DNA of 64,000 nt from a virus (lineage: Duplodnaviria > Caudoviricetes): the IMG/VR virus record IMGVR_UViG_3300046171_000271; one strand, written 5' to 3'. Positions 1,060 through 60,980 of this stretch are shown one piece after another. The notes under the pieces are model-generated. The model did no database searches, was not told the origin of the DNA, and saw only the letters and a list, made by a program, of their open reading frames with translations. The number at the start of each line of letters is the position of its first letter. Position 1 is the first letter of the stretch. A program made the translations under genes and the position numbers.

Positions 1060-1393
1060 TCCTTATATTCAGTTCTTAGAAAATTGGATACCTGGAATAG
1101 GTGAAGATACTAAACTTCATGATCAACTTCATATACATTTTGATCTTGGATTTAGTGTTAATGACGAAGCTAGACTTCTTGGTTTTCAATTAGGACATCA
1201 CCCTGCTGGAAGTTTCTTTCACGTTGTGATATTCTGTATGATGAGTGTTACGATTTATCCTAGTGATTATCGAAACAGTTTGAAAGATATTCAGGATTTT
1301 TACGAAGCATACTTGCTCGGAAAATACTGGCAATCTGTATCCTATTGGTTTATTCCCAAAACAATATTATGCGCGACGAATTTCTGTGGGTAG
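1040..1393 (+). CDS. Hypothetical protein
   Basis: 117-aa ORF filling the gap before gp44 and overlapping its start. Confidence 0.55.
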   Translation: MLTMQPDPYIQFLENWIPGIGEDTKLHDQLHIHFDLGFSVNDEARLLGFQLGHHPAGSFFHVVIFCMMSVTIYPSDYRNSLKDIQDFYEAYLLGKYWQSVSYWFIPKTILCATNFCG

Positions 1394-2313
1394 AAAAGTA
1401 TCGCCCACGTAAAATTGAGGAGTGTATTCTCCCTGATAATATCAAGAAGACTTTTCTCGACTTCCTAGATAAAGGAGAAGTGCCTAACCTGCTTCTTGCA
1501 GGCCCTGCTGGATGTGGTAAGACTACAGTTGCAAAAGCACTTTGCAATGAACTTGGAGTAGACTATTATGTCATCAATGGATCCGATGAGGGACGATTCC
1601 TTGATACCGTCCGAAACAATGCGAAAAACTTCGCTTCAACCGTTTCGCTTGCATCAACTGCAAAACACAAAGTCATCATTATTGATGAAGCAGATAACAC
1701 AACCAACGACGTTCAACTCCTCCTACGGGCGTTTATTGAGGAGTTTAGTGGCAACTGCAGATTCATCTTCACCTGCAACTATAAAAACAAAATTGTCGAA
1801 CCTCTTCACTCTCGATGCGCCGTCATCGAGTTCGGAATCAAAGGAAAGGAACGACAAGAAATCGCAGCATCTTTCTTCAAGCGTGTCAGAACTATCTTGG
1901 ATGAAGAAAGTATTAAATATGATAACAAAGTCCTGGTAGAATTAATCAATAAACACTTTCCTGATTGGCGTCGAGTTCTGAATGAAATTCAGAGATACTC
2001 ATCAGGCGGTGCTATTGATGCAGGAATTCTCGCTACATTCTCTGATGTCAAAGTTAATAACCTTATACAAAATCTTAAACAAAAGAACTTCCCTGAAGTT
2101 CGGAAGTGGGTGGTGGATAATTTGGATAATGATTCTGGTGTACTTATGCGTCGTATTTACGATGCTCTTTATACATCCTTGGCAAACTCTAGTATTCCTG
2201 CTGCTGTCCTTGTTATTGCTAAGTATCAATATCAGATTGCCTTCGTTGCGGATCAGGAAATAAACCTGCTTGCTTGTCTAACTGAAATTATGGTGGAGTG
2301 TGAATTCAAATGA
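1369..2313 (+). CDS. gp44: Clamp loader large subunit (T4 gp44-like, RFC AAA+)
   Basis: LWVEKYRP, Walker A GPAGCGKTT, Walker B IIIDEAD and SRC motifs. Confidence 0.97.
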   Translation: MRDEFLWVEKYRPRKIEECILPDNIKKTFLDFLDKGEVPNLLLAGPAGCGKTTVAKALCNELGVDYYVINGSDEGRFLDTVRNNAKNFASTVSLASTAKHKVIIIDEADNTTNDVQLLLRAFIEEFSGNCRFIFTCNYKNKIVEPLHSRCAVIEFGIKGKERQEIAASFFKRVRTILDEESIKYDNKVLVELINKHFPDWRRVLNEIQRYSSGGAIDAGILATFSDVKVNNLIQNLKQKNFPEVRKWVVDNLDNDSGVLMRRIYDALYTSLANSSIPAAVLVIAKYQYQIAFVADQEINLLACLTEIMVECEFK

Positions 2314-3374
2314 TATTGACGGAGGATGATGCAGTTTATGCTGCTAATAAATTCATAAACTATTATTCTCAATTCAATCGTATTGATGATTATCTAAGGC
2401 ACATCAAAGAAGATAGAGGTGAGAACAGATCGGGATATCTTCCTGGATTTGGTGCAGACTCAGATATGTTTGACAAGTTTGATATGCATCCTAATGACAT
2501 GAATTTTGAAGTTTATGTAGTTGACACTGATACTAAAAGTCGTTCAAAGTATAATCAGTGGCTTTATTCTGAGACATTGAATTTGACTGCTTCTAATCCT
2601 ATTGAGGAAGCAATTCCTGGTAGGACACATAAATGGATAGTAGTTGAAACAAACACGGACAAGGTTGTTGGTGTTGTTAGGTTTGGTTCACCCACAATCA
2701 ATAGCAAACCTCGCAATAATTACTTTGGTGAAGTCAAGTCTCTTAGTGATATTAATGCTCACTTCGTTATGGGCTTTAACATTGTTCCTACTCAACCTTT
2801 CGGGTTCAATTACCTGGGCGGAAAACTTCTTGCCTTACTAGCATCTTCTAAAGAACTGAAGCAACAGTTTGATGAGAAGTATGGGATAGATCTCAAATAC
2901 TTTGAGACTACATCTCTTTATGGAACTACAAAGGGAGTATCAATGTATGATGGACTCAAACCCTTTCTGAGGCATATTGGAGACACTGAGAGTAAGTTCT
3001 TACCTCTGTTTCACGATGATGTGTTTAGAGACTTCTTCTGGTGGTTTAATGAACGTAATGGAGGCGAGCGTTTGATCTCTGCCGATAAATCATCAAAGAA
3101 ACTGAAGATTCAAGTTAAGATGATATCTATTATTAGAAATTCTTTGAAGGACGAAGACAAACTAAAGCAGTTTAATGAGTGTATTGAACATGCAATGTCT
3201 CTCACAGAAAAGAAAAGATATTATCTTGGAGACTTCCGTCATACTTCTGAAGAAGCAATCACCTGGTGGAAGAAGAAAGCATCCAAGCGGTTTGAAAAAC
3301 TTAAGTCTGAAGACAGAGTAAGAACTGAACTTGAGATTTGGGGATCTACAGAAAATATGGAGATTATTAGATAA
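2310..3374 (+). CDS. DUF4338/DruA-like protein
   Basis: Motifs PFGFNYLGGKLLALL and ETTSLYG resemble the DUF4338 family. Start and stop overlap gp44 and gp62. Confidence 0.6.
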   Translation: MILTEDDAVYAANKFINYYSQFNRIDDYLRHIKEDRGENRSGYLPGFGADSDMFDKFDMHPNDMNFEVYVVDTDTKSRSKYNQWLYSETLNLTASNPIEEAIPGRTHKWIVVETNTDKVVGVVRFGSPTINSKPRNNYFGEVKSLSDINAHFVMGFNIVPTQPFGFNYLGGKLLALLASSKELKQQFDEKYGIDLKYFETTSLYGTTKGVSMYDGLKPFLRHIGDTESKFLPLFHDDVFRDFFWWFNERNGGERLISADKSSKKLKIQVKMISIIRNSLKDEDKLKQFNECIEHAMSLTEKKRYYLGDFRHTSEEAITWWKKKASKRFEKLKSEDRVRTELEIWGSTENMEIIR

Positions 3375-3742
3375 TGGAACTTAAAGATTGGTTGAATTCG
3401 GTTAACTTTACAAAAGAAGATTTGTCTGAGGATATGAAATCTTATCCTCCTTATATTGTTAATCGTTGTTTATCTGGACATCTTGATTGTGTATTGTTCG
3501 CTAATGAGATGAACAAGTATCACTTTCTTGATAAGGACATGCAATATAAATTTTATCTAAATAGTCTGAGGAAAAAAAAGAGATTTTCTCCCTGGCTCCG
3601 TAAGGATAAAGTCACGGATCTCGAAAGTGTCAAACAATACTATGGATATAGTAATGAAAAGGCATGTCAAGCTCTGAAAATCCTGACACAAGAACAGATT
3701 AACTTTATTAAAAAACGACTTGACGTTGGAGGAACAAAATGA
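3374..3742 (+). CDS. gp62: Clamp loader small subunit (T4 gp62-like)
   Basis: LKDWLNSVN, YPPYIVNRCLS, KKRFSPW and YYGYSNEKA motifs; lies between gp44 and regA. Confidence 0.92.
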   Translation: MELKDWLNSVNFTKEDLSEDMKSYPPYIVNRCLSGHLDCVLFANEMNKYHFLDKDMQYKFYLNSLRKKKRFSPWLRKDKVTDLESVKQYYGYSNEKACQALKILTQEQINFIKKRLDVGGTK

Positions 3743-4176
3743 GTAATACTGTGGAACCCCAGTATCACTGGACTCAAGATCGTATGATCGAAGTCCTTTT
3801 AAATGAACCAGACGATTTCCTAAAAGTAAGAGAGACGTTGACTAGAATTGGAGTTGCTTCTAGAAAAGAGAAGAAACTTTATCAGTCATGTCACATTCTT
3901 CACAAGCAGGGAAAGTATTATATTGTCCATTTTAAGGAACTGTTTGCATTAGATGGAAAACATGCAAACCTTTCTATAAACGATGTTCAGCGTCGTAATC
4001 GCATTGTGCGTTTGCTTTCTGATTGGGGATTAATCTCTATTGTTGATGAGGAGACTGTTGCAGATATTGCACCTCTTAATCAAATTAAAGTTCTTGCATA
4101 TAAAGATAAGGGGGATTGGATCTTAGAGCAGAAATATAACATTGGTAAGAAGGGTAAAACCCAGGAAACCGAATAA
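3739..4176 (+). CDS. regA: RegA translational repressor
   Basis: DDFLKVRETLTRIGVA, LYQSCHILHKQGKYYIVHFKELFALDG. Confidence 0.97.
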   Translation: MSNTVEPQYHWTQDRMIEVLLNEPDDFLKVRETLTRIGVASRKEKKLYQSCHILHKQGKYYIVHFKELFALDGKHANLSINDVQRRNRIVRLLSDWGLISIVDEETVADIAPLNQIKVLAYKDKGDWILEQKYNIGKKGKTQETE

Positions 4177-4207
4177 AAATATACGGGGTTTACTGCCCCG
4201 TTTTTTT
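4167..4207 (+). repeat. Left copy of 41-nt imperfect direct repeat (regA 3' end plus terminator)
   Basis: AACCGAATAAAAATATACGGGGTT at 4167-4190 is identical to 6015-6038. Both copies continue through 5 variable nt to CCCCGTTTTTTT. Confidence 0.9.
4183..4207 (+). terminator. Rho-independent terminator after regA
   Basis: ACGGGG..CCCCGT stem followed by a T-run. Confidence 0.85.
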
Positions 4208-4226
4208 ATGATATGATGTATAAATA
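4189..4226 (+). promoter_or_regulatory. Tandem sigma70-like (TTTACT-N17-TATGAT) and T4 late (TATAAATA) promoters
   Basis: TTTACT 4189-4194, TATGAT 4212-4217, TATAAATA 4219-4226. Confidence 0.65.
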
Positions 4227-4345
4227 ATACGTCTCTAGATCGGTTGACTGGAGATGCCTGTTGGTGAAAGCCTCAGGTGGGATATGTTCCCGTAACCACT
4301 AACCCGTTGAAACACACGGTTAACGAACACTGAGAGGTAATAACC
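4227..4345 (+). ncRNA. Candidate structured 5' leader RNA (four hairpins, possible pseudoknot)
   Basis: Stems 4230-4238/4248-4256, 4257-4260/4274-4277 with an inner GAAA-tetraloop hairpin, 4279-4282/4288-4291 and 4304-4307/4316-4319. GAGAGG SD at 4332-4337. Found by eye. Confidence 0.55.
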
Positions 4346-6016
4346 ATGGCGAGAGAAATGCGCCCTAATGATGCTTATGCCAAATTTGCATCAAACTTTG
4401 AGGAGTCTATTAGTAGTGCAATTTTTTTAGAACCCAAAGTAAAAGTCTACCCACTTCAGACAAGTGGTGGTAAATCTTACTACCAAGATAAAGAAATGCC
4501 GTTGAAGATCAAACAGGTATTTCCCGAGATGAAGTATATTTTTAGATTGTCTCCAACAAGAGAAGTTGCACACGATGGAACTTTTGAAAAGGTTCACGAA
4601 CTTTCCGCTGATGGTGACACCAGGTTTAGTTTTATTGCAGATCCCCCAAGTAGCAATATTCTGGATTGTTTTGGTAATATGCCAAATACAGTTCTATGTG
4701 TTTCCTGTACACATACATATTTCACTACAAATTTTGAAAGGTTGCTGGAGTATGCTTCTGACTCTGTTTTGGTGATTGAGGAAGCTCATCAATTTATTGG
4801 TGCAGCAGATCCTGGATCAGAATCATATGTAATTAACTTTGGATATTCCTCTGAATATACTGCTGAAACTTGGCAGAGAATTAAAAAGTGGAGAGATGTA
4901 AATCCAAGAATTATTGGGTTTACTGCAACTCCAACAGAACATCATAAAGGACACACGTCACTTAGCGATCAATTTAGAGTTTGTGGTGAACTCGCTGAAA
5001 AGAAAGTTATTCTTCCATCACAAGCATGGATGAGTAAAGCACATCCTTATTCTTTTACAAAATATCAGGGAAAGTCATCTGTCGAACCTGCTATTCATCA
5101 AAGCATTGATCTTTTATTTGAGAGAGAGGAAAAATTAATTGATCTCAAATATTTTCCGTTGGAAAGGGAAGAGCAACTTTTAAGCACATATCTAAGGCCA
5201 GATAAAGATGGCCGAATTAATACTAAACTATCCGCCATGTATGTTTGTGGTGATCAACGGGGAGTTTGGGGTTGTTCAATTGATGAAGTTAGAGAAACAA
5301 TCGCAAAATATTTACTTTCCGATTGTGGATTTGATGAATCTAAAAAGATGATTGCAACAATGGTTGAAAATAGTAGTGGTGGTAATACTATTTGGACACT
5401 GGATGGAGTTGCTGCGGAAAAAGTTGATAATCGAACGTTAATGAAAAAACTTCATGATGAATATGATCCTCTTAGATTTCTTCTTGTTATCAATAGAGGC
5501 CGATCTGGAATCAATGTTCATAACTTAACTGCTCAAGTTATTTGTAGAATTAGAGATCCTAAAGAAGTCAGAACACCAATTCCCATTCAAATTTTTGGTA
5601 GAATGGTTCGACTTAATCCTGGGACAGGTGATGTCATCCGTAAAGAATATGCCAATAATTTGGACAACTATTTAAAATATTATCCGAAGGATTATAGTGT
5701 TGACATTAATACAATGTTGGAAACAATTAAAGTTGCAAATGTTTTTGATATTTGGCATCCAACTAACGGTAAGGCAAAAAGAACTTGGGAAGAATCTCTT
5801 GATGAATTTCAACGAGATTATGTAAACACTTCTAAAGAAGGGTTTGATTATCTGTATGAATATACTGGAGTTGATAAACCAAATCTAAAACCAATTAATT
5901 TAGAGATAGAAGTTGAGTGTCCATGTGATGGCAGTAAGTTTATGGTAAACGTAAATAAAGAGATTGAAGATTGGAAAGGGGATGGAACATTAGACGCATT
6001 TTTTAACATGGTATAA
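4346..6016 (+). CDS. Divergent superfamily-2 helicase/ATPase (ResIII-like)
   Basis: Motif I QTSGGKS, motif II VIEEAH, motif III FTATP, motif V GRSGINV, motif VI QIFGRMVR. Confidence 0.8.
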   Translation: MAREMRPNDAYAKFASNFEESISSAIFLEPKVKVYPLQTSGGKSYYQDKEMPLKIKQVFPEMKYIFRLSPTREVAHDGTFEKVHELSADGDTRFSFIADPPSSNILDCFGNMPNTVLCVSCTHTYFTTNFERLLEYASDSVLVIEEAHQFIGAADPGSESYVINFGYSSEYTAETWQRIKKWRDVNPRIIGFTATPTEHHKGHTSLSDQFRVCGELAEKKVILPSQAWMSKAHPYSFTKYQGKSSVEPAIHQSIDLLFEREEKLIDLKYFPLEREEQLLSTYLRPDKDGRINTKLSAMYVCGDQRGVWGCSIDEVRETIAKYLLSDCGFDESKKMIATMVENSSGGNTIWTLDGVAAEKVDNRTLMKKLHDEYDPLRFLLVINRGRSGINVHNLTAQVICRIRDPKEVRTPIPIQIFGRMVRLNPGTGDVIRKEYANNLDNYLKYYPKDYSVDINTMLETIKVANVFDIWHPTNGKAKRTWEESLDEFQRDYVNTSKEGFDYLYEYTGVDKPNLKPINLEIEVECPCDGSKFMVNVNKEIEDWKGDGTLDAFFNMV

Positions 6017-6055
6017 CCGAATAAAAATATACGGGGTTCAACACCCCGTTTTTTT
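6015..6055 (+). repeat. Right copy of 41-nt direct repeat including terminator
   Basis: AACCGAATAAAAATATACGGGGTTcaacaCCCCGTTTTTTT matches 4167-4207. Confidence 0.9.
6031..6055 (+). terminator. Rho-independent terminator after the helicase
   Basis: ACGGGGT/ACCCCGT stem followed by a T-run. Confidence 0.85.
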
Positions 6056-6062
6056 GTATTTG

Positions 6063-6071
6063 TGTTATAAT
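6063..6071 (+). promoter_or_regulatory. Extended -10 promoter for hsp20
   Basis: TGnTATAAT (TGT TATAAT) at 6063-6071. Confidence 0.55.
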
Positions 6072-6129
6072 TAGTATGTACGCCGAAAGGGTACACACAA
6101 CACAATCTCGCTTTAAAAGGAGAAGTCAA

Positions 6130-6561
6130 ATGGGAGAACTTACCCGCTACCGCGTGGCAGATATGGCTGCGCTGATGGAAAAACTAAATAAGAATGCGAT
6201 TGGTATGAATGAATACTTTGATAAAGTATTCGAGGGCACAGCACCCAGCAATTATCCACCTTATAATGTGATTCAATTAAATAATATTGAAACACGATTG
6301 GAAATCGCACTAGCAGGATTTAAGAAGGAGGAGGTTCATGCTTTCACCGAGTATGGAAAACTTTTTGTCAGGGGGGAAAAAGAAACATCTGACGAAGAAG
6401 GGACATACATCCACAAGGGTTTGGCTCAGCGAAACTTTGAAAGATCCTGGACACTTGCTGAAGGTACAGAAGTCACCGACGTGTTATTTGAAGACGGACT
6501 TCTGAGAATTACTGTAAAGAAAGTAGTGCCTGAACACCACGCACGAAAAGATTATCTCTAA
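6130..6561 (+). CDS. hsp20: Small heat-shock protein (Hsp20/IbpA-like)
   Basis: NYPPYNV, EIALAGF, YIHKGLAQRNFERSW and FEDGLLRI motifs. AGGAG SD before the ATG at 6130. Confidence 0.95.
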   Translation: MGELTRYRVADMAALMEKLNKNAIGMNEYFDKVFEGTAPSNYPPYNVIQLNNIETRLEIALAGFKKEEVHAFTEYGKLFVRGEKETSDEEGTYIHKGLAQRNFERSWTLAEGTEVTDVLFEDGLLRITVKKVVPEHHARKDYL

Positions 6562-27293: not shown

Positions 27294-27367
27294 GTCTCAG
27301 TAGCTCAGTGGATTAGAGCAACTGCCTTCTAAGCAGTCGGCCGTAGGTTCGAGTCCTACCTGAGACG
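27294..27367 (+). tRNA. tRNA-Arg(UCU)
   Basis: Acceptor GTCTCAG/CTGAGAC, anticodon loop CTTCTAA, T-loop GTTCGAG. Confidence 0.95.
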
Positions 27368-27371
27368 CCTC

Positions 27372-27443
27372 GCGGAGTTAGTTCAGCGGTAGAACGCTAT
27401 CCTTCCAAGTTAGATGTCGTCGGTTCGATTCCGATACTCCGCT
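27372..27443 (+). tRNA. tRNA-Gly(UCC)
   Basis: GCGGAGT/ACTCCGC, loop CTTCCAA, GTTCGAT. Confidence 0.93.
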
Positions 27444-27459
27444 TTCCTTCTTTAGGAAC

Positions 27460-27627
27460 ATGAAACCAGTTGAAATTCTTCTACTTATATCAGAGTTAGA
27501 AGGTTCTTATCAACACACCAAGAAACTTGGTTTTGACGATGACAAAGATGTCCTCAGAAAAATGTGCGATAAGTATCATAAACTGTATTACAAACTAAAG
27601 AAGGAACAAAAAAACAATCCTCTATAG
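27460..27627 (+). CDS. Small hypothetical protein within the tRNA cluster
   Basis: AGGA SD; MKPVEILLLISELEGSY...NNPL*; the last 10 nt overlap tRNA-Asn. Confidence 0.55.
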   Translation: MKPVEILLLISELEGSYQHTKKLGFDDDKDVLRKMCDKYHKLYYKLKKEQKNNPL

Positions 27628-27689
27628 CTCAATGGTAGAGCTCTCGACTGTTAATCGAGCGGTTCTTGGTTCGAGTCCAAGTGGGGGAG
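27618..27689 (+). tRNA. tRNA-Asn(GUU)
   Basis: TCCTCTA/TGGGGGA, anticodon arm CTCGA-CTGTTAA-TCGAG. Confidence 0.93.
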
Positions 27690-27693
27690 CCTT

Positions 27694-27765
27694 GCTTGAT
27701 TAGCTCAGCGGTAGAGCATCTCGTTTACACCGAGGCGGCCGGCGGTTCGATCCCGTCATCAAGCA
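27694..27765 (+). tRNA. tRNA-Val(UAC)
   Basis: GCTTGAT/ATCAAGC, loop TTTACAC. Confidence 0.93.
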
Positions 27766-27789
27766 TTCCTATCAGGAGGATTATGAAAA

Positions 27790-28038
27790 ATGATTATTGT
27801 ACGTTGCAAAGAATGCAACACAGAAATTTGTAGTAATAATAAAACTCAAGTCTGTGGTTGCCCTAACATGATGACTGTGTTAGGTGATAAAGTTTCTGCT
27901 CAGGATCTTAGTAAAATCGTCATGATTAATTCTGATAAGAAAAAGACATCAAATAATGTCTTATCTAATCAAGATTTACAAGATCAAGAAAAGAGGAGAA
28001 AAAGAAAAGTACGTAAGTTGGACTTTGAAGTTCGTTGA
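27790..28038 (+). CDS. Small Cys-rich (Zn-binding) hypothetical protein
   Basis: CKEC...CGC motif; AGGAGG SD. Confidence 0.75.
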   Translation: MIIVRCKECNTEICSNNKTQVCGCPNMMTVLGDKVSAQDLSKIVMINSDKKKTSNNVLSNQDLQDQEKRRKRKVRKLDFEVR

Positions 28039-28063
28039 CAATGGTTCAGCTTTCCTCTATAAT
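28035..28063 (+). promoter_or_regulatory. Consensus sigma70 (early) promoter for tRNA-Ser/Pro
   Basis: TTGACA-N17-TATAAT exact consensus. Confidence 0.85.
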
Positions 28064-28128
28064 AATGTTATATGCTCTGTGCTCCCTACCATCGTAAACT
28101 TCACGCTGGTTTTTGGAAATAATTTAAT

Positions 28129-28211
28129 GGAGAGAGTCCGGTTGGCCGAGGACACCGCCTTGAAAGCGGCTGAGGGTAACACCTTCGCAGGTTCGATTCC
28201 TGTTCTCTCCG
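28129..28211 (+). tRNA. tRNA-Ser(UGA)
   Basis: GGAGAGA/TCTCTCC, loop CTTGAAA, long variable arm. Confidence 0.92.
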
Positions 28212-28213
28212 CT

Positions 28214-28287
28214 CGGGATGTAGCTCAGTTTGGTAGAGCACTCGCTTTGGGAGCGAGTGGCCGTAGGTTCAAATCCTATCATCCCGA
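28214..28287 (+). tRNA. tRNA-Pro(UGG)
   Basis: CGGGATG/CATCCCG, arm CTCGC-TTTGGGA-GCGAG. Confidence 0.95.
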
Positions 28288-28572
28288 TTGTGTTTGTATC
28301 AAGATGTTACACTCTTTAGAGAATATTTTGTTTCTATATACAATTATACCTGCATAAAAATATTGATTGTTTTTTATCTTCTTATCTTAACACTTATTGC
28401 GTTAATCATAATAGGTGGTTATGATGCAACTATGCGACTTATTGCATATATTGATCTTAAAGTCAGGTACTCTTTGATAAAAATAAGATCATATTTTTTG
28501 ATGAGAAAACTCAGATCTCAACTTACAAGAGATAGAAAACAATTACTCAAGGAGTTTAAGAAGAATGTCTGA
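28288..28572 (+). CDS. Hypothetical membrane protein
   Basis: Hydrophobic N-terminal half; start uncertain. Confidence 0.45.
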   Translation: MCLYQDVTLFREYFVSIYNYTCIKILIVFYLLILTLIALIIIGGYDATMRLIAYIDLKVRYSLIKIRSYFLMRKLRSQLTRDRKQLLKEFKKNV

Positions 28573-28813
28573 TGAGCAAACATCTTTGTCGTCTGATACT
28601 AAAACTTGCCCTAATTGTGGTGCCACATGGATAGGTGGACAACATTACTGGAGCGGAACTGGAAAATTAGGAAACGAGTTAGATCTTGCTGGTTTAGTAT
28701 GTAATAACCTTGGCGATGAAACCTGCATAAACCCTTGCGTAGGTATGGAAGGTGGAGTAACATGGGAGAAGAGGATGTCCCAGTTAGACAAAGATGAGTC
28801 ACAGAATGGATGA
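28565..28813 (+). CDS. Hypothetical Cys-containing protein
   Basis: CPNCGATW...LAGLVCN...CINP. Confidence 0.7.
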   Translation: MSDEQTSLSSDTKTCPNCGATWIGGQHYWSGTGKLGNELDLAGLVCNNLGDETCINPCVGMEGGVTWEKRMSQLDKDESQNG

Positions 28814-28988
28814 GATTAAACCAGAGCACTATGTTACAGAAAAACAGTGCCAAGAAATGATCGACAAAGCAATTGACAAACACAATAAAACTGCTACACT
28901 AATAAGTGCAATCCTAGGTTCTATAGTCCTAGGATTCTATTCTCACGGACTTTTTGCCCTGGTAAATAAATGGAAATCTTTTCTTTAA
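28806..28988 (+). CDS. Small membrane protein
   Basis: MDEIKP...CQEMIDKAIDKHN followed by a transmembrane segment; start approximate. Confidence 0.6.
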   Translation: MDEIKPEHYVTEKQCQEMIDKAIDKHNKTATLISAILGSIVLGFYSHGLFALVNKWKSFL

Positions 28989-29140
28989 AGGAATGGGAAG
29001 ATAATTTTGACGAACTCTTTGCAAGAGTTGAGAATGGAGAGAGACTTGGTATTGTTAGAGAAGACGGTAAAGCAGCTGTCTTTATGCCAGTTGACGATGA
29101 ACTAATGAAATTGTATACTGATCATGAAGAGGGATCTTGA
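28970..29140 (+). CDS. Phd/YefM antitoxin-like small protein (not in ORF track)
   Basis: MEIFSLKEWEDNFDELFARVENGERLGIVREDGKAAVFMP fits the Phd/YefM N-terminal pattern. Confidence 0.6.
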   Translation: MEIFSLKEWEDNFDELFARVENGERLGIVREDGKAAVFMPVDDELMKLYTDHEEGS

Positions 29141-29215
29141 GGGACTGTCGCCTATCGGTTAAGGCCCACTGCTTATAACGGTGTGAACTGGGTTCAACTC
29201 CCAGCAGTCCTACCA
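29141..29215 (+). tRNA. tRNA-Ile(UAU) with encoded CCA
   Basis: GGGACTG/CAGTCCT-A-CCA, anticodon arm CACTG-CTTATAA-CGGTG. Confidence 0.88.
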
Positions 29216-29288
29216 AGGGGTTTAGCAATCTGGTGAATGCAGCAAACTCATAATTTGCCTAAGGCGAGTTCGATCCTCGCAACCCCTA
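29216..29288 (+). tRNA. tRNA with CAU anticodon (elongator Met or Ile2)
   Basis: AGGGGTT/AACCCCT, arm GCAAA-CTCATAA-TTTGC. Lacks initiator features (no C1-A72, no 3 G-C pairs). Confidence 0.85.
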
Positions 29289-57396: not shown

Positions 57397-57593
57397 ATTT
57401 TGAGTTAACAATGGAAGATTTTACAATCATCCAAAATGCTCTACATTATTATAAACATGTAGAGAAACGCGGACATTTTTCACAATATGATGTTGAGCGT
57501 ATAAATCAATTGAGAGATAAGTTATCTTATCAACTAATCCCTAGTATGAATAGTAAAGATGGAACTGTTCCTTCGCCCCCTAGAAAATCCTAA
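57393..57593 (+). CDS. Small hypothetical protein
   Basis: MNFELTMEDFTIIQNALHYY. Confidence 0.6.
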   Translation: MNFELTMEDFTIIQNALHYYKHVEKRGHFSQYDVERINQLRDKLSYQLIPSMNSKDGTVPSPPRKS

Positions 57594-60840: not shown

Positions 60841-60877
60841 CATCAACGACATGGAACGTTAAGTTCTGTAAAGTTGT

Positions 60878-60980
60878 ATTACTCTCTGCAAACCGAGGCC
60901 TCTAGGGAGTATAAAAACGCCTCTAATACCTATCTCTGAGGGTGAGATAGGAATATTTACTTCAGTGTCCCTGCACTCAT
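60878..60980 (+). ncRNA. Structured psbA leader (PhotoRC-II-like)
   Basis: GAGGC/GCCTC stem (60895-60923), CCTATCTC/GAGATAGG (60929-60951), AGTG/CACT, and 60880-60887 pairing with 60904-60911 (pseudoknot). Position matches the PhotoRC motifs known upstream of cyanophage psbA. Confidence 0.6.

Follow-up and report, generated by a model that had tools for sequence, protein, structure and literature searches.

Translational operators are known from phage T4, and those involving gp43 and RegA provide parallels for the leader described here. T4 gp32 is under autogenous control through a leader pseudoknot that nucleates binding beside an unstructured ribosome-binding site (RBS), as quoted in the report of an IMG/VR structured-RNA catalogue that holds 8,495 unnamed candidates (Fremin et al. 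2023; PMC10690425). PeSL elements are defined by a consensus in which the −35 box lies in or near a terminator loop and is followed by a 17-nt spacer and a −10 box (PMC4122927). The locus examined here lies in a 64,000-nt stretch of DNA (the window) from a T4-like cyanomyovirus, whose nearest relatives in culture are S-SM2 and SynMITS9220M01, with ~79% identity across the clamp-loader region. In it, a folded leader precedes a helicase gene, and both are part of a PeSL-type cassette.

The regA–hsp20 locus

The features of the locus are listed in Table 1. All of the hairpins and the Shine–Dalgarno (SD) sequence listed in the preliminary description could be read directly in the sequence. A 354-aa ORF (2310–3374, + strand) located between gp44 and gp62 matches Pfam DruA (Druantia, E 3e-11) and, over its full length, phrog_19197. 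S-SM2 retains a DruA-like ORF, annotated there as 'putative cytoplasmic protein'. Elsewhere in the window, PhotoRC-II, a known cyanophage cis-regulatory RNA family, was found at 60869–60964 on the + strand (scoring 67 bits where the gathering threshold is 39), and Rfam identified eight tRNA genes clustered at 27294–29288 (+), the one at 28129–28211 scoring exactly at the threshold. The region around the hsp20 start (L001:3953–4014, approximately 6056–6140 in the window) resembles the ROSE_3 RNA thermometer, but at 26.5 bits the score is below the gathering threshold of 43.

Table 1. Features of the regA–hsp20 region and its surroundings (window coordinates)
Feature	Position	Strand	Description
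gp44	1345–2313		
gp62	3374–3742		
regA	3739–4176		Pfam Translat_reg, E 1e-43
Spacer between regA and helicase			169 nt; folded leader is its 3′ two-thirds
Left direct repeat	4167–4207	+	41 nt; last regA codons, stop codon, terminator; left border of cassette
regA intrinsic terminator	4183–4207	+	stem-loop 4183–4201 and T run; −35 box in loop
Putative sigma-70-like early promoter	4189–4217	+	TTTACT, 17 nt, TATGAT; TG before −10 box
TATAAATA	4219–4226	+	T4-type late-promoter consensus; 5–7 nt before first RNA helix
P1 hairpin	4230–4238/4248–4256	+	consensus pairs 4231–4238/4248–4255; clade A only
P2	4257–4260/4274–4277	+	CCTG/CAGG; 4256–4260/4274–4278 with flanking pair; encloses P2a
P2a	4263–4272	+	GGT-GAAA-GCC; stem 4263–4265/4270–4272, GAAA tetraloop 4266–4269
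P3	4279–4282/4288–4291	+	GGGA/TCCC; abuts P2
Tail	4292–4303	+	GUAACMACUAAC, conserved, mostly single-stranded; UUAAAACUAAU in clade B
P4	inner 4304–4307/4316–4319; outer 4300–4303/4319–4322	+	outer TAAC/GTTA
Linker	4323–4345	+	variable, A-rich, unstructured; SD GAGAGG 4332–4337; ATG 4346
Helicase ORF	4346–6016	+	556 aa, divergent SF2, RadD-like, C-terminal CxxC
Right direct repeat	6015–6055	+	41 nt; orphan regA end and terminator copy; right border of cassette
hsp20	6076–6561		gp43 further downstream

The two direct repeats that flank the helicase gene and its leader are 90% identical, and the ancestral hsp20 promoter sits 3′ of the right-hand copy. In S-SM2 the site is empty, with regA followed by a single terminator/promoter and then hsp20, and the S-SM2 promoter at this empty site matches the right-hand junction in the window. 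Both of the features that define a PeSL cassette were therefore found, namely a terminator stem-loop with a sigma-70-type promoter, and flanking copies around a gene that is present or absent among close relatives. The promoter layout is shared by the relatives, with TTGACA in the terminator loop, 17 nt and TATTAT or TATGAT. Further downstream, UAUAAAUA or a one-base variant of it was found at the head of nearly all of 38 aligned leaders, and from what is known of T4 we take TATAAATA to be a late promoter. Together, the terminator, promoters, leader and helicase gene make up a mobile cassette (unit 4167–6055). Many relatives also carry an element of ~50 nt with hairpin potential between the regA stop codon and the terminator (…CGUGC…CUAC…GGAAUA…; e.g. 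L001:2011–2060 and, in S-SM2, L125:4685–4740). It is missing from the window, where the terminator directly follows regA.

The identification of the downstream gene as a helicase, made in the preliminary description, was upheld. Motifs I (LQTGGGKS), II (EEAH), III (TAT) and VI (QxxGRxxR) of the SF2 helicases are present in addition to the C-terminal CxxC, and the predicted fold is nearest to RadD. The best match of the confident AlphaFold model (pLDDT 83) among solved structures was E. coli RadD, followed by HsdR, RapA, FANCM and the Dicer/RIG-I cores. Searches with the window's helicase found nothing above threshold in Pfam or PHROGs and no meaningful hit in a PDB sequence-profile search, and weak Pfam signals for ResIII, DEAD and Helicase_C were found in its relatives. 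Of these relatives, more than 150 are metagenomic. The cultured phages in the collection lack the helicase, save for a homolog in S-CAM9 that is 27% identical.

Structure and conservation of the leader

As a single sequence, the leader in the window folds only marginally better than its shuffled controls (z −1.6 to −1.9), so that the dense structure first described for it stood without being exceptional in energy. A stretch of 122 nt gave z −1.58, with 12 of 200 shuffles equally good and z −0.62 for the opposite strand. For the structured part alone (4230–4325) z was −1.92, and the minimum-energy fold consisted of the consensus hairpins P1, P2/P2a, P3 and P4. When nine diverse members were folded singly, the same hairpins were obtained each time, with z from −0.6 to −3.8.

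Homologous loci were collected using protein-guided scans of IMG/VR, an exact scan for an 18-nt core and a gapped pattern scan of JGI metagenomes, which yielded 38 distinct leaders, all from uncultivated marine T4-like phages. Where the helicase is at least ~64% identical (clade A), the leader is always present with the same four hairpins. In clade B and in L058 and L059 (helicase ~50–57% identical), P1 is missing and P2/P2a, P3, the A-rich tail and P4 are kept. In these B-type leaders P2 is CCUA/UAGG or CUUA/UAAG, P2a is CAG-GAAA-CUG, and P3 is UGGA/UCCA or GAGA/UCUC. Homologs with compensatory changes, which the preliminary description had left to be sought, are thus present.

An unguided RNAalifold prediction recovered P2, P2a, P3 and P4. 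In a MAFFT alignment of 22 sequences, 97.2% of the cells were paired and 13 of 32 pairs had changed on both sides, a count in which four of the pairs are pseudoknot pairs; none of 500 shuffles was as good, and slid controls reached 35–52%. In a model-guided alignment of all 38 sequences, which had been fitted to the covariance model, pairing held in 97.7% of the cells and 17 of 28 pairs showed changes on both sides; again none of 500 shuffles was as good, and slid controls reached 37–47%. An all-against-all column scan for further covarying pairs returned mostly artefacts of the split between clades A and B. Because this deep split alone yields many spurious covariations, the strongest support comes from repeated independent events within clade A.

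Such events were found in P1, where six of the nine pairs have changed on both sides, 98.8% of the cells are paired and clade A includes at least six different stems. All three pairs of P2a show compensatory changes, with four stems within clade A. The inner helix of P4, which varies in sequence and length across leaders, has compensatory changes in three of three pairs and several stems, and in the outer helix C-G has been replaced by U-A in three lineages. P2 (99.5% paired, with a single unpaired cell among the 38 sequences) includes GC/AU and CG/UA swaps. P3 is 100% paired, with no helix-breaking sequence and two independent compensatory variants, UGGA/UCCA in L058 and GAGA/UCUC in L059. 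The support for P2 and P3 comes from few independent events.

Several unpaired positions are near-invariant across proteins down to ~50% identity, namely the P1 loop (AUCRGUUGA, conserved in clade A), the P2/P3 junction, the ACUAA tail and the GAAA loop. This conservation of unpaired nucleotides and of the GAAA loop implies specific recognition or tertiary folding. The last four nucleotides of the tail open P4, and the tail is also the 3′ partner of a candidate pseudoknot. In clade A the SD is separated from P4 by 10–12 nt, and only in the B-type clades does it adjoin or run into the 3′ arm of P4. Many of the conserved pairs are G-U, which would be A-C mismatches on the opposite strand, and the RNA is therefore read from the + strand. 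On this comparative evidence, positions 4230–4322 encode a conserved folded RNA domain, on the + strand, at the 5′ end of the helicase mRNA.

Two further pairings of the P1 loop had been proposed. The pseudoknot with 4293–4297 fits the window perfectly, but across the alignment that register can form in 77.9% of the cells and shows no covariation. In clade A, the loop AUCAGUUGA can instead form 5 bp with CAACU in the tail (AGUUG/CAACU) in 95.7% of the cells, using a register 3 nt away. In the clade A alignment this loop–tail pairing has no compensatory changes and shuffles were equally good. Five variants (the window itself in the consensus register, L045, L054, L108 and L109) each break one of its pairs, and clades without P1 cannot form it. 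We place the pseudoknot outside the conserved core, and in clade A it is a possible interaction. The second pairing, of the P1 loop with TAACC at 4341–4345, is a chance match to a stretch that varies freely in relatives.

Other potential elements were considered in the same way. Pairing between the 5′ strand of P2 (UACCU) and the SD (AGGUA) is lost in clade B. We found no conserved alternative helix that sequesters the SD, the clade A linker leading to the SD varying in both sequence and length, and no terminator between the fold and the ATG. The hairpin followed by the A-rich ACUAA tail resembles preQ1-I, but the P3 loop of 4–5 nt is too small for the preQ1-I pseudoknot and there was no Rfam hit. 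A mini-ORF in P3 (AUG-UUC-CCG-UAA, window 4285–4296, preceded by the SD-like AGGUGG) was rejected as an upstream ORF, having been lost in L042, L109 and clade B. Its retention in most of clade A is probably incidental.

Distribution and linkage to the helicase

Each of the 29 true metagenome hits, and every hit in a viral contig, immediately precedes the helicase ORF. With the covariance model (R1), the window and each contig gave a single copy, and a 12.8-bit match at window 57500–57568 (E 3.9) was treated as noise. When the pattern scan was applied to one genome from each of 185,579 prokaryote species, no true copy was found, the sole hit, in an Acetatifactor MAG, lacking P2 and being due to chance. 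Metagenome hits L116 and L117 and viral hit L031 were also chance matches. A blastn search of cultured phages with the leader matched the terminator alone (in S-SKS1).

The possibility that the leader belongs to a characterised family was examined using Rfam 15, including manA, wcaG, PhotoRC-I/II, glnA and preQ1-I, and no gathering-level match was found in 4100–4400. Relaxing the cut-off to E ≤ 10 brought in just sub-threshold hits before position 4240, which were driven by the terminator. No leader among those of 10 relatives, whatever its type, gave an Rfam match at E ≤ 1. The leader is thus apparently an uncatalogued structured 5′-leader element of a phage gene, with no Rfam family. The catalogue of 8,495 candidates (PMC10690425) could hold this motif; the comparison made was with the text of that paper, in which the word 'helicase' does not occur.

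In three studies, RNA libraries yielded contigs of relatives with a likeness of at least 80% (90–95% for those that bridge) which extend from the leader into the coding region, and one of them also covers the terminator. Contigs do not show starts, ends or strand, DNA carry-over is possible, and RNA-seq runs covered small shares of the stretch only. The contigs fit a leader that is carried on the helicase mRNA.

Leader types map one-to-one onto the protein clades, and the clades with the P2–P3 core (A, B, L058/L059 and L064) form one group. In clades C–G, in which the helicase is 36–48% identical, the 70–120-nt leaders have other folds that are partly supported by covariation and match neither R1 nor Rfam. 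Among the distant-clade leaders (L066–L091; e.g. L068:1365–1488, L075:600–717, L085:590–674 and L081:770–852), several contain a hairpin with a GUAAAA or GAAA loop inside an outer stem; none of the distant-clade leaders is in Rfam, and these may be further undescribed motifs. The S-CAM9 leader (L124:1075–1146), with CGAAAUCCGUG twice and a CACG/CGUG hairpin, shows another arrangement again.

Clades A, C and F were all found at the site after regA in cyanophages. The leader–helicase pair of clade B is found elsewhere, downstream of the major capsid gene gp23 and followed by a gp19-like gene and uvsY. The leader is thus cargo of the cassette and does not belong to the insertion site. Covariation, strict co-occurrence and co-mobility agree that a cis-regulatory RNA leader of the helicase, as first suggested, is the right general class, and the leader probably controls expression of the helicase gene.

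Possible functions and comparison with known systems

The layout found here, with a structured leader, a gene for a nucleic-acid-binding protein and an adjacent unstructured RBS, is of the operator type. Our tentative preference, drawn from this layout and from analogy, is that the leader may be a translational operator recognised by a protein. The helicase itself is the most likely candidate (autogenous control), with RegA or another nucleic-acid-binding protein less likely as the regulator. The protein would bind the structured domain upstream of the free RBS and, by blocking this adjacent site or spreading over it, would limit helicase synthesis; the 5′-terminal helix would probably also protect the mRNA end. 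A protein is favoured over a metabolite as the ligand because a single gene is involved, the architecture turns over with the protein clade and P1 is lost or gained as a module, and also because there is no terminator and no conserved anti-SD pairing, and the RBS is free and adjacent. However, the conservation of unpaired nucleotides, the GNRA loop and the possible pseudoknot would be just as much in keeping with a metabolite aptamer. In clade A, the 10–12 nt between P4 and the SD make simple steric occlusion less than obvious. Nor is RNA binding by the helicase implied, because its fold is nearest to DNA-repair or translocating enzymes (RadD, HsdR) and the dsRNA helicases rank lower. Physical linkage alone would make leader types follow protein clades, so that this correspondence is no proof of RNA–protein co-evolution.

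Possible, though doubtful, is that leader and helicase form a mobile RNA–protein module, the RNA being either a marine-phage-only class of riboswitch or aptamer, or a co-evolving cofactor or loading site, with a cognate RNA in each clade. If real, a two-part module of this kind would add a previously undescribed, phage-borne helicase ribonucleoprotein.

It seems unlikely that the leader is a riboswitch in which the P2–P3–tail–P4 core, joined in clade A by P1 and the loop–tail pseudoknot, binds a small molecule or ion and alters translation initiation. The term 'riboswitch-like' used earlier does suit the fold, an aptamer-like and covariation-supported 5′ UTR structure of ~95 nt and four helices with near-invariant unpaired nucleotides in the junction and tail and a GAAA tetraloop; it does not extend to an expression platform, since there is neither a terminator nor a conserved anti-SD helix, and clade B does not preserve the complementarity between the P2 5′ strand and the SD. 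The SD does abut or overlap the 3′ arm of P4 in the B-type clades, and the loop–tail pairing is possible in 95.7% of clade A cells, but without covariation. Orphan cyanophage cis-regulatory motifs are known, with PhotoRC-II in this same window. On the other hand, the leader matches no Rfam riboswitch, is associated with one gene family only and is never found in cellular genomes, and sister helicase clades at the same phage locus use unrelated leaders. A metabolite-binding leader would represent a phage-only riboswitch class.

The element might instead be a passive 5′-terminal module that has no dedicated effector, protects the mRNA from 5′-end-dependent decay and insulates the RBS from the context of the landing site. 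Every helicase clade has some structured leader, whatever its sequence. The first helix, P1 in clade A and P2 in clade B, begins 5–7 nt after TATAAATA, approximately at the predicted late start, the RBS is kept unstructured and the cassette is mobile. A stabiliser would need just a hairpin, yet the unpaired positions are near-invariant down to ~50% protein identity, and we consider this explanation improbable.

Less credible still is a leader, perhaps processed from the mRNA, that serves as a cofactor, loading site, substrate mimic or decoy for the helicase in a ribonucleoprotein, for example in phage–host conflict. RNA and gene are obligately paired and co-mobile, the helicase fold also resembles the dsRNA-binding Dicer/RIG-I cores, and accessory or adaptive genes are frequent cargo of PeSL cassettes (PMC4122927). 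Against this, no terminator or other 3′ end separates the leader from the ORF, RNA-library contigs run on from the leader into the coding region, which is a weak argument, and a DNA-repair helicase gave the best structural match. Finally, the suggestion that the hairpins arose by chance in an intergenic spacer and do not function as RNA accords with the marginal fold of the window's own sequence (z −1.58 and −1.92) but has almost no probability, since every helix covaries, G-U pairs are kept and conservation extends to ~50% protein identity and to two genomic loci.

When compared with the PeSL cassettes of T4-like phages (PMC2839356, PMC4122927), the locus shares the stem-loop overlapping a promoter, the flanking copies and the empty site in a relative. 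The promoter found here, TTTACT-17-TATGAT, is one −10 base off the T4/PST-type consensus TTTACW...TAYWAT. PeSLs account for the movement and transcription of the cassette but not for the ~95-nt folded leader inside it, and a structured leader as cargo is no part of the PeSL description in PMC4122927. The present case shows that the cargo of PeSL-type cassettes can include elements of post-transcriptional control. The candidates in PMC10690425 come from the same data source and are also covariation-supported intergenic motifs directly upstream of phage genes, several of them before gp32 and gp20.

The orphan cyanophage and marine motifs in Rfam (PhotoRC-I/II, manA, wcaG and glnA/Downstream-peptide) are likewise structured 5′-UTR motifs known mainly from metagenomes. 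They differ in architecture and associated gene, no covariance model matched at E ≤ 10, and the leader described here was not found in the 185,579 prokaryote genomes scanned. A well-supported structured RNA is thus added to the small set from marine cyanophages. The helicase attached to it is RadD-like, uncharacterised and widespread, lies in the T4-like replication module and moves as a self-contained cassette. The leader is a short RNA that is easily synthesised, and with one protein it makes a concrete pair to test.

The T4 operators (the gene 32 pseudoknot, the gene 43 hairpin and the RegA targets) have no sequence or structural homology to the leader, which has four hairpins as opposed to an H-type pseudoknot or a single hairpin. 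To our knowledge, autoregulation of an SF2 helicase has not been reported in T4-type phages. If a helicase-bound operator is confirmed, autogenous translational control of the gp32/gp43 style would extend to an SF2 helicase. What the T4 operators and this locus have in common is a T4-type phage and a structured 5′ leader followed by an unstructured A/U-rich RBS region. Like the genes controlled by the T4 operators, the helicase gene encodes a nucleic-acid enzyme of replication or repair, has its own putative promoters and is located near regA and gp43.
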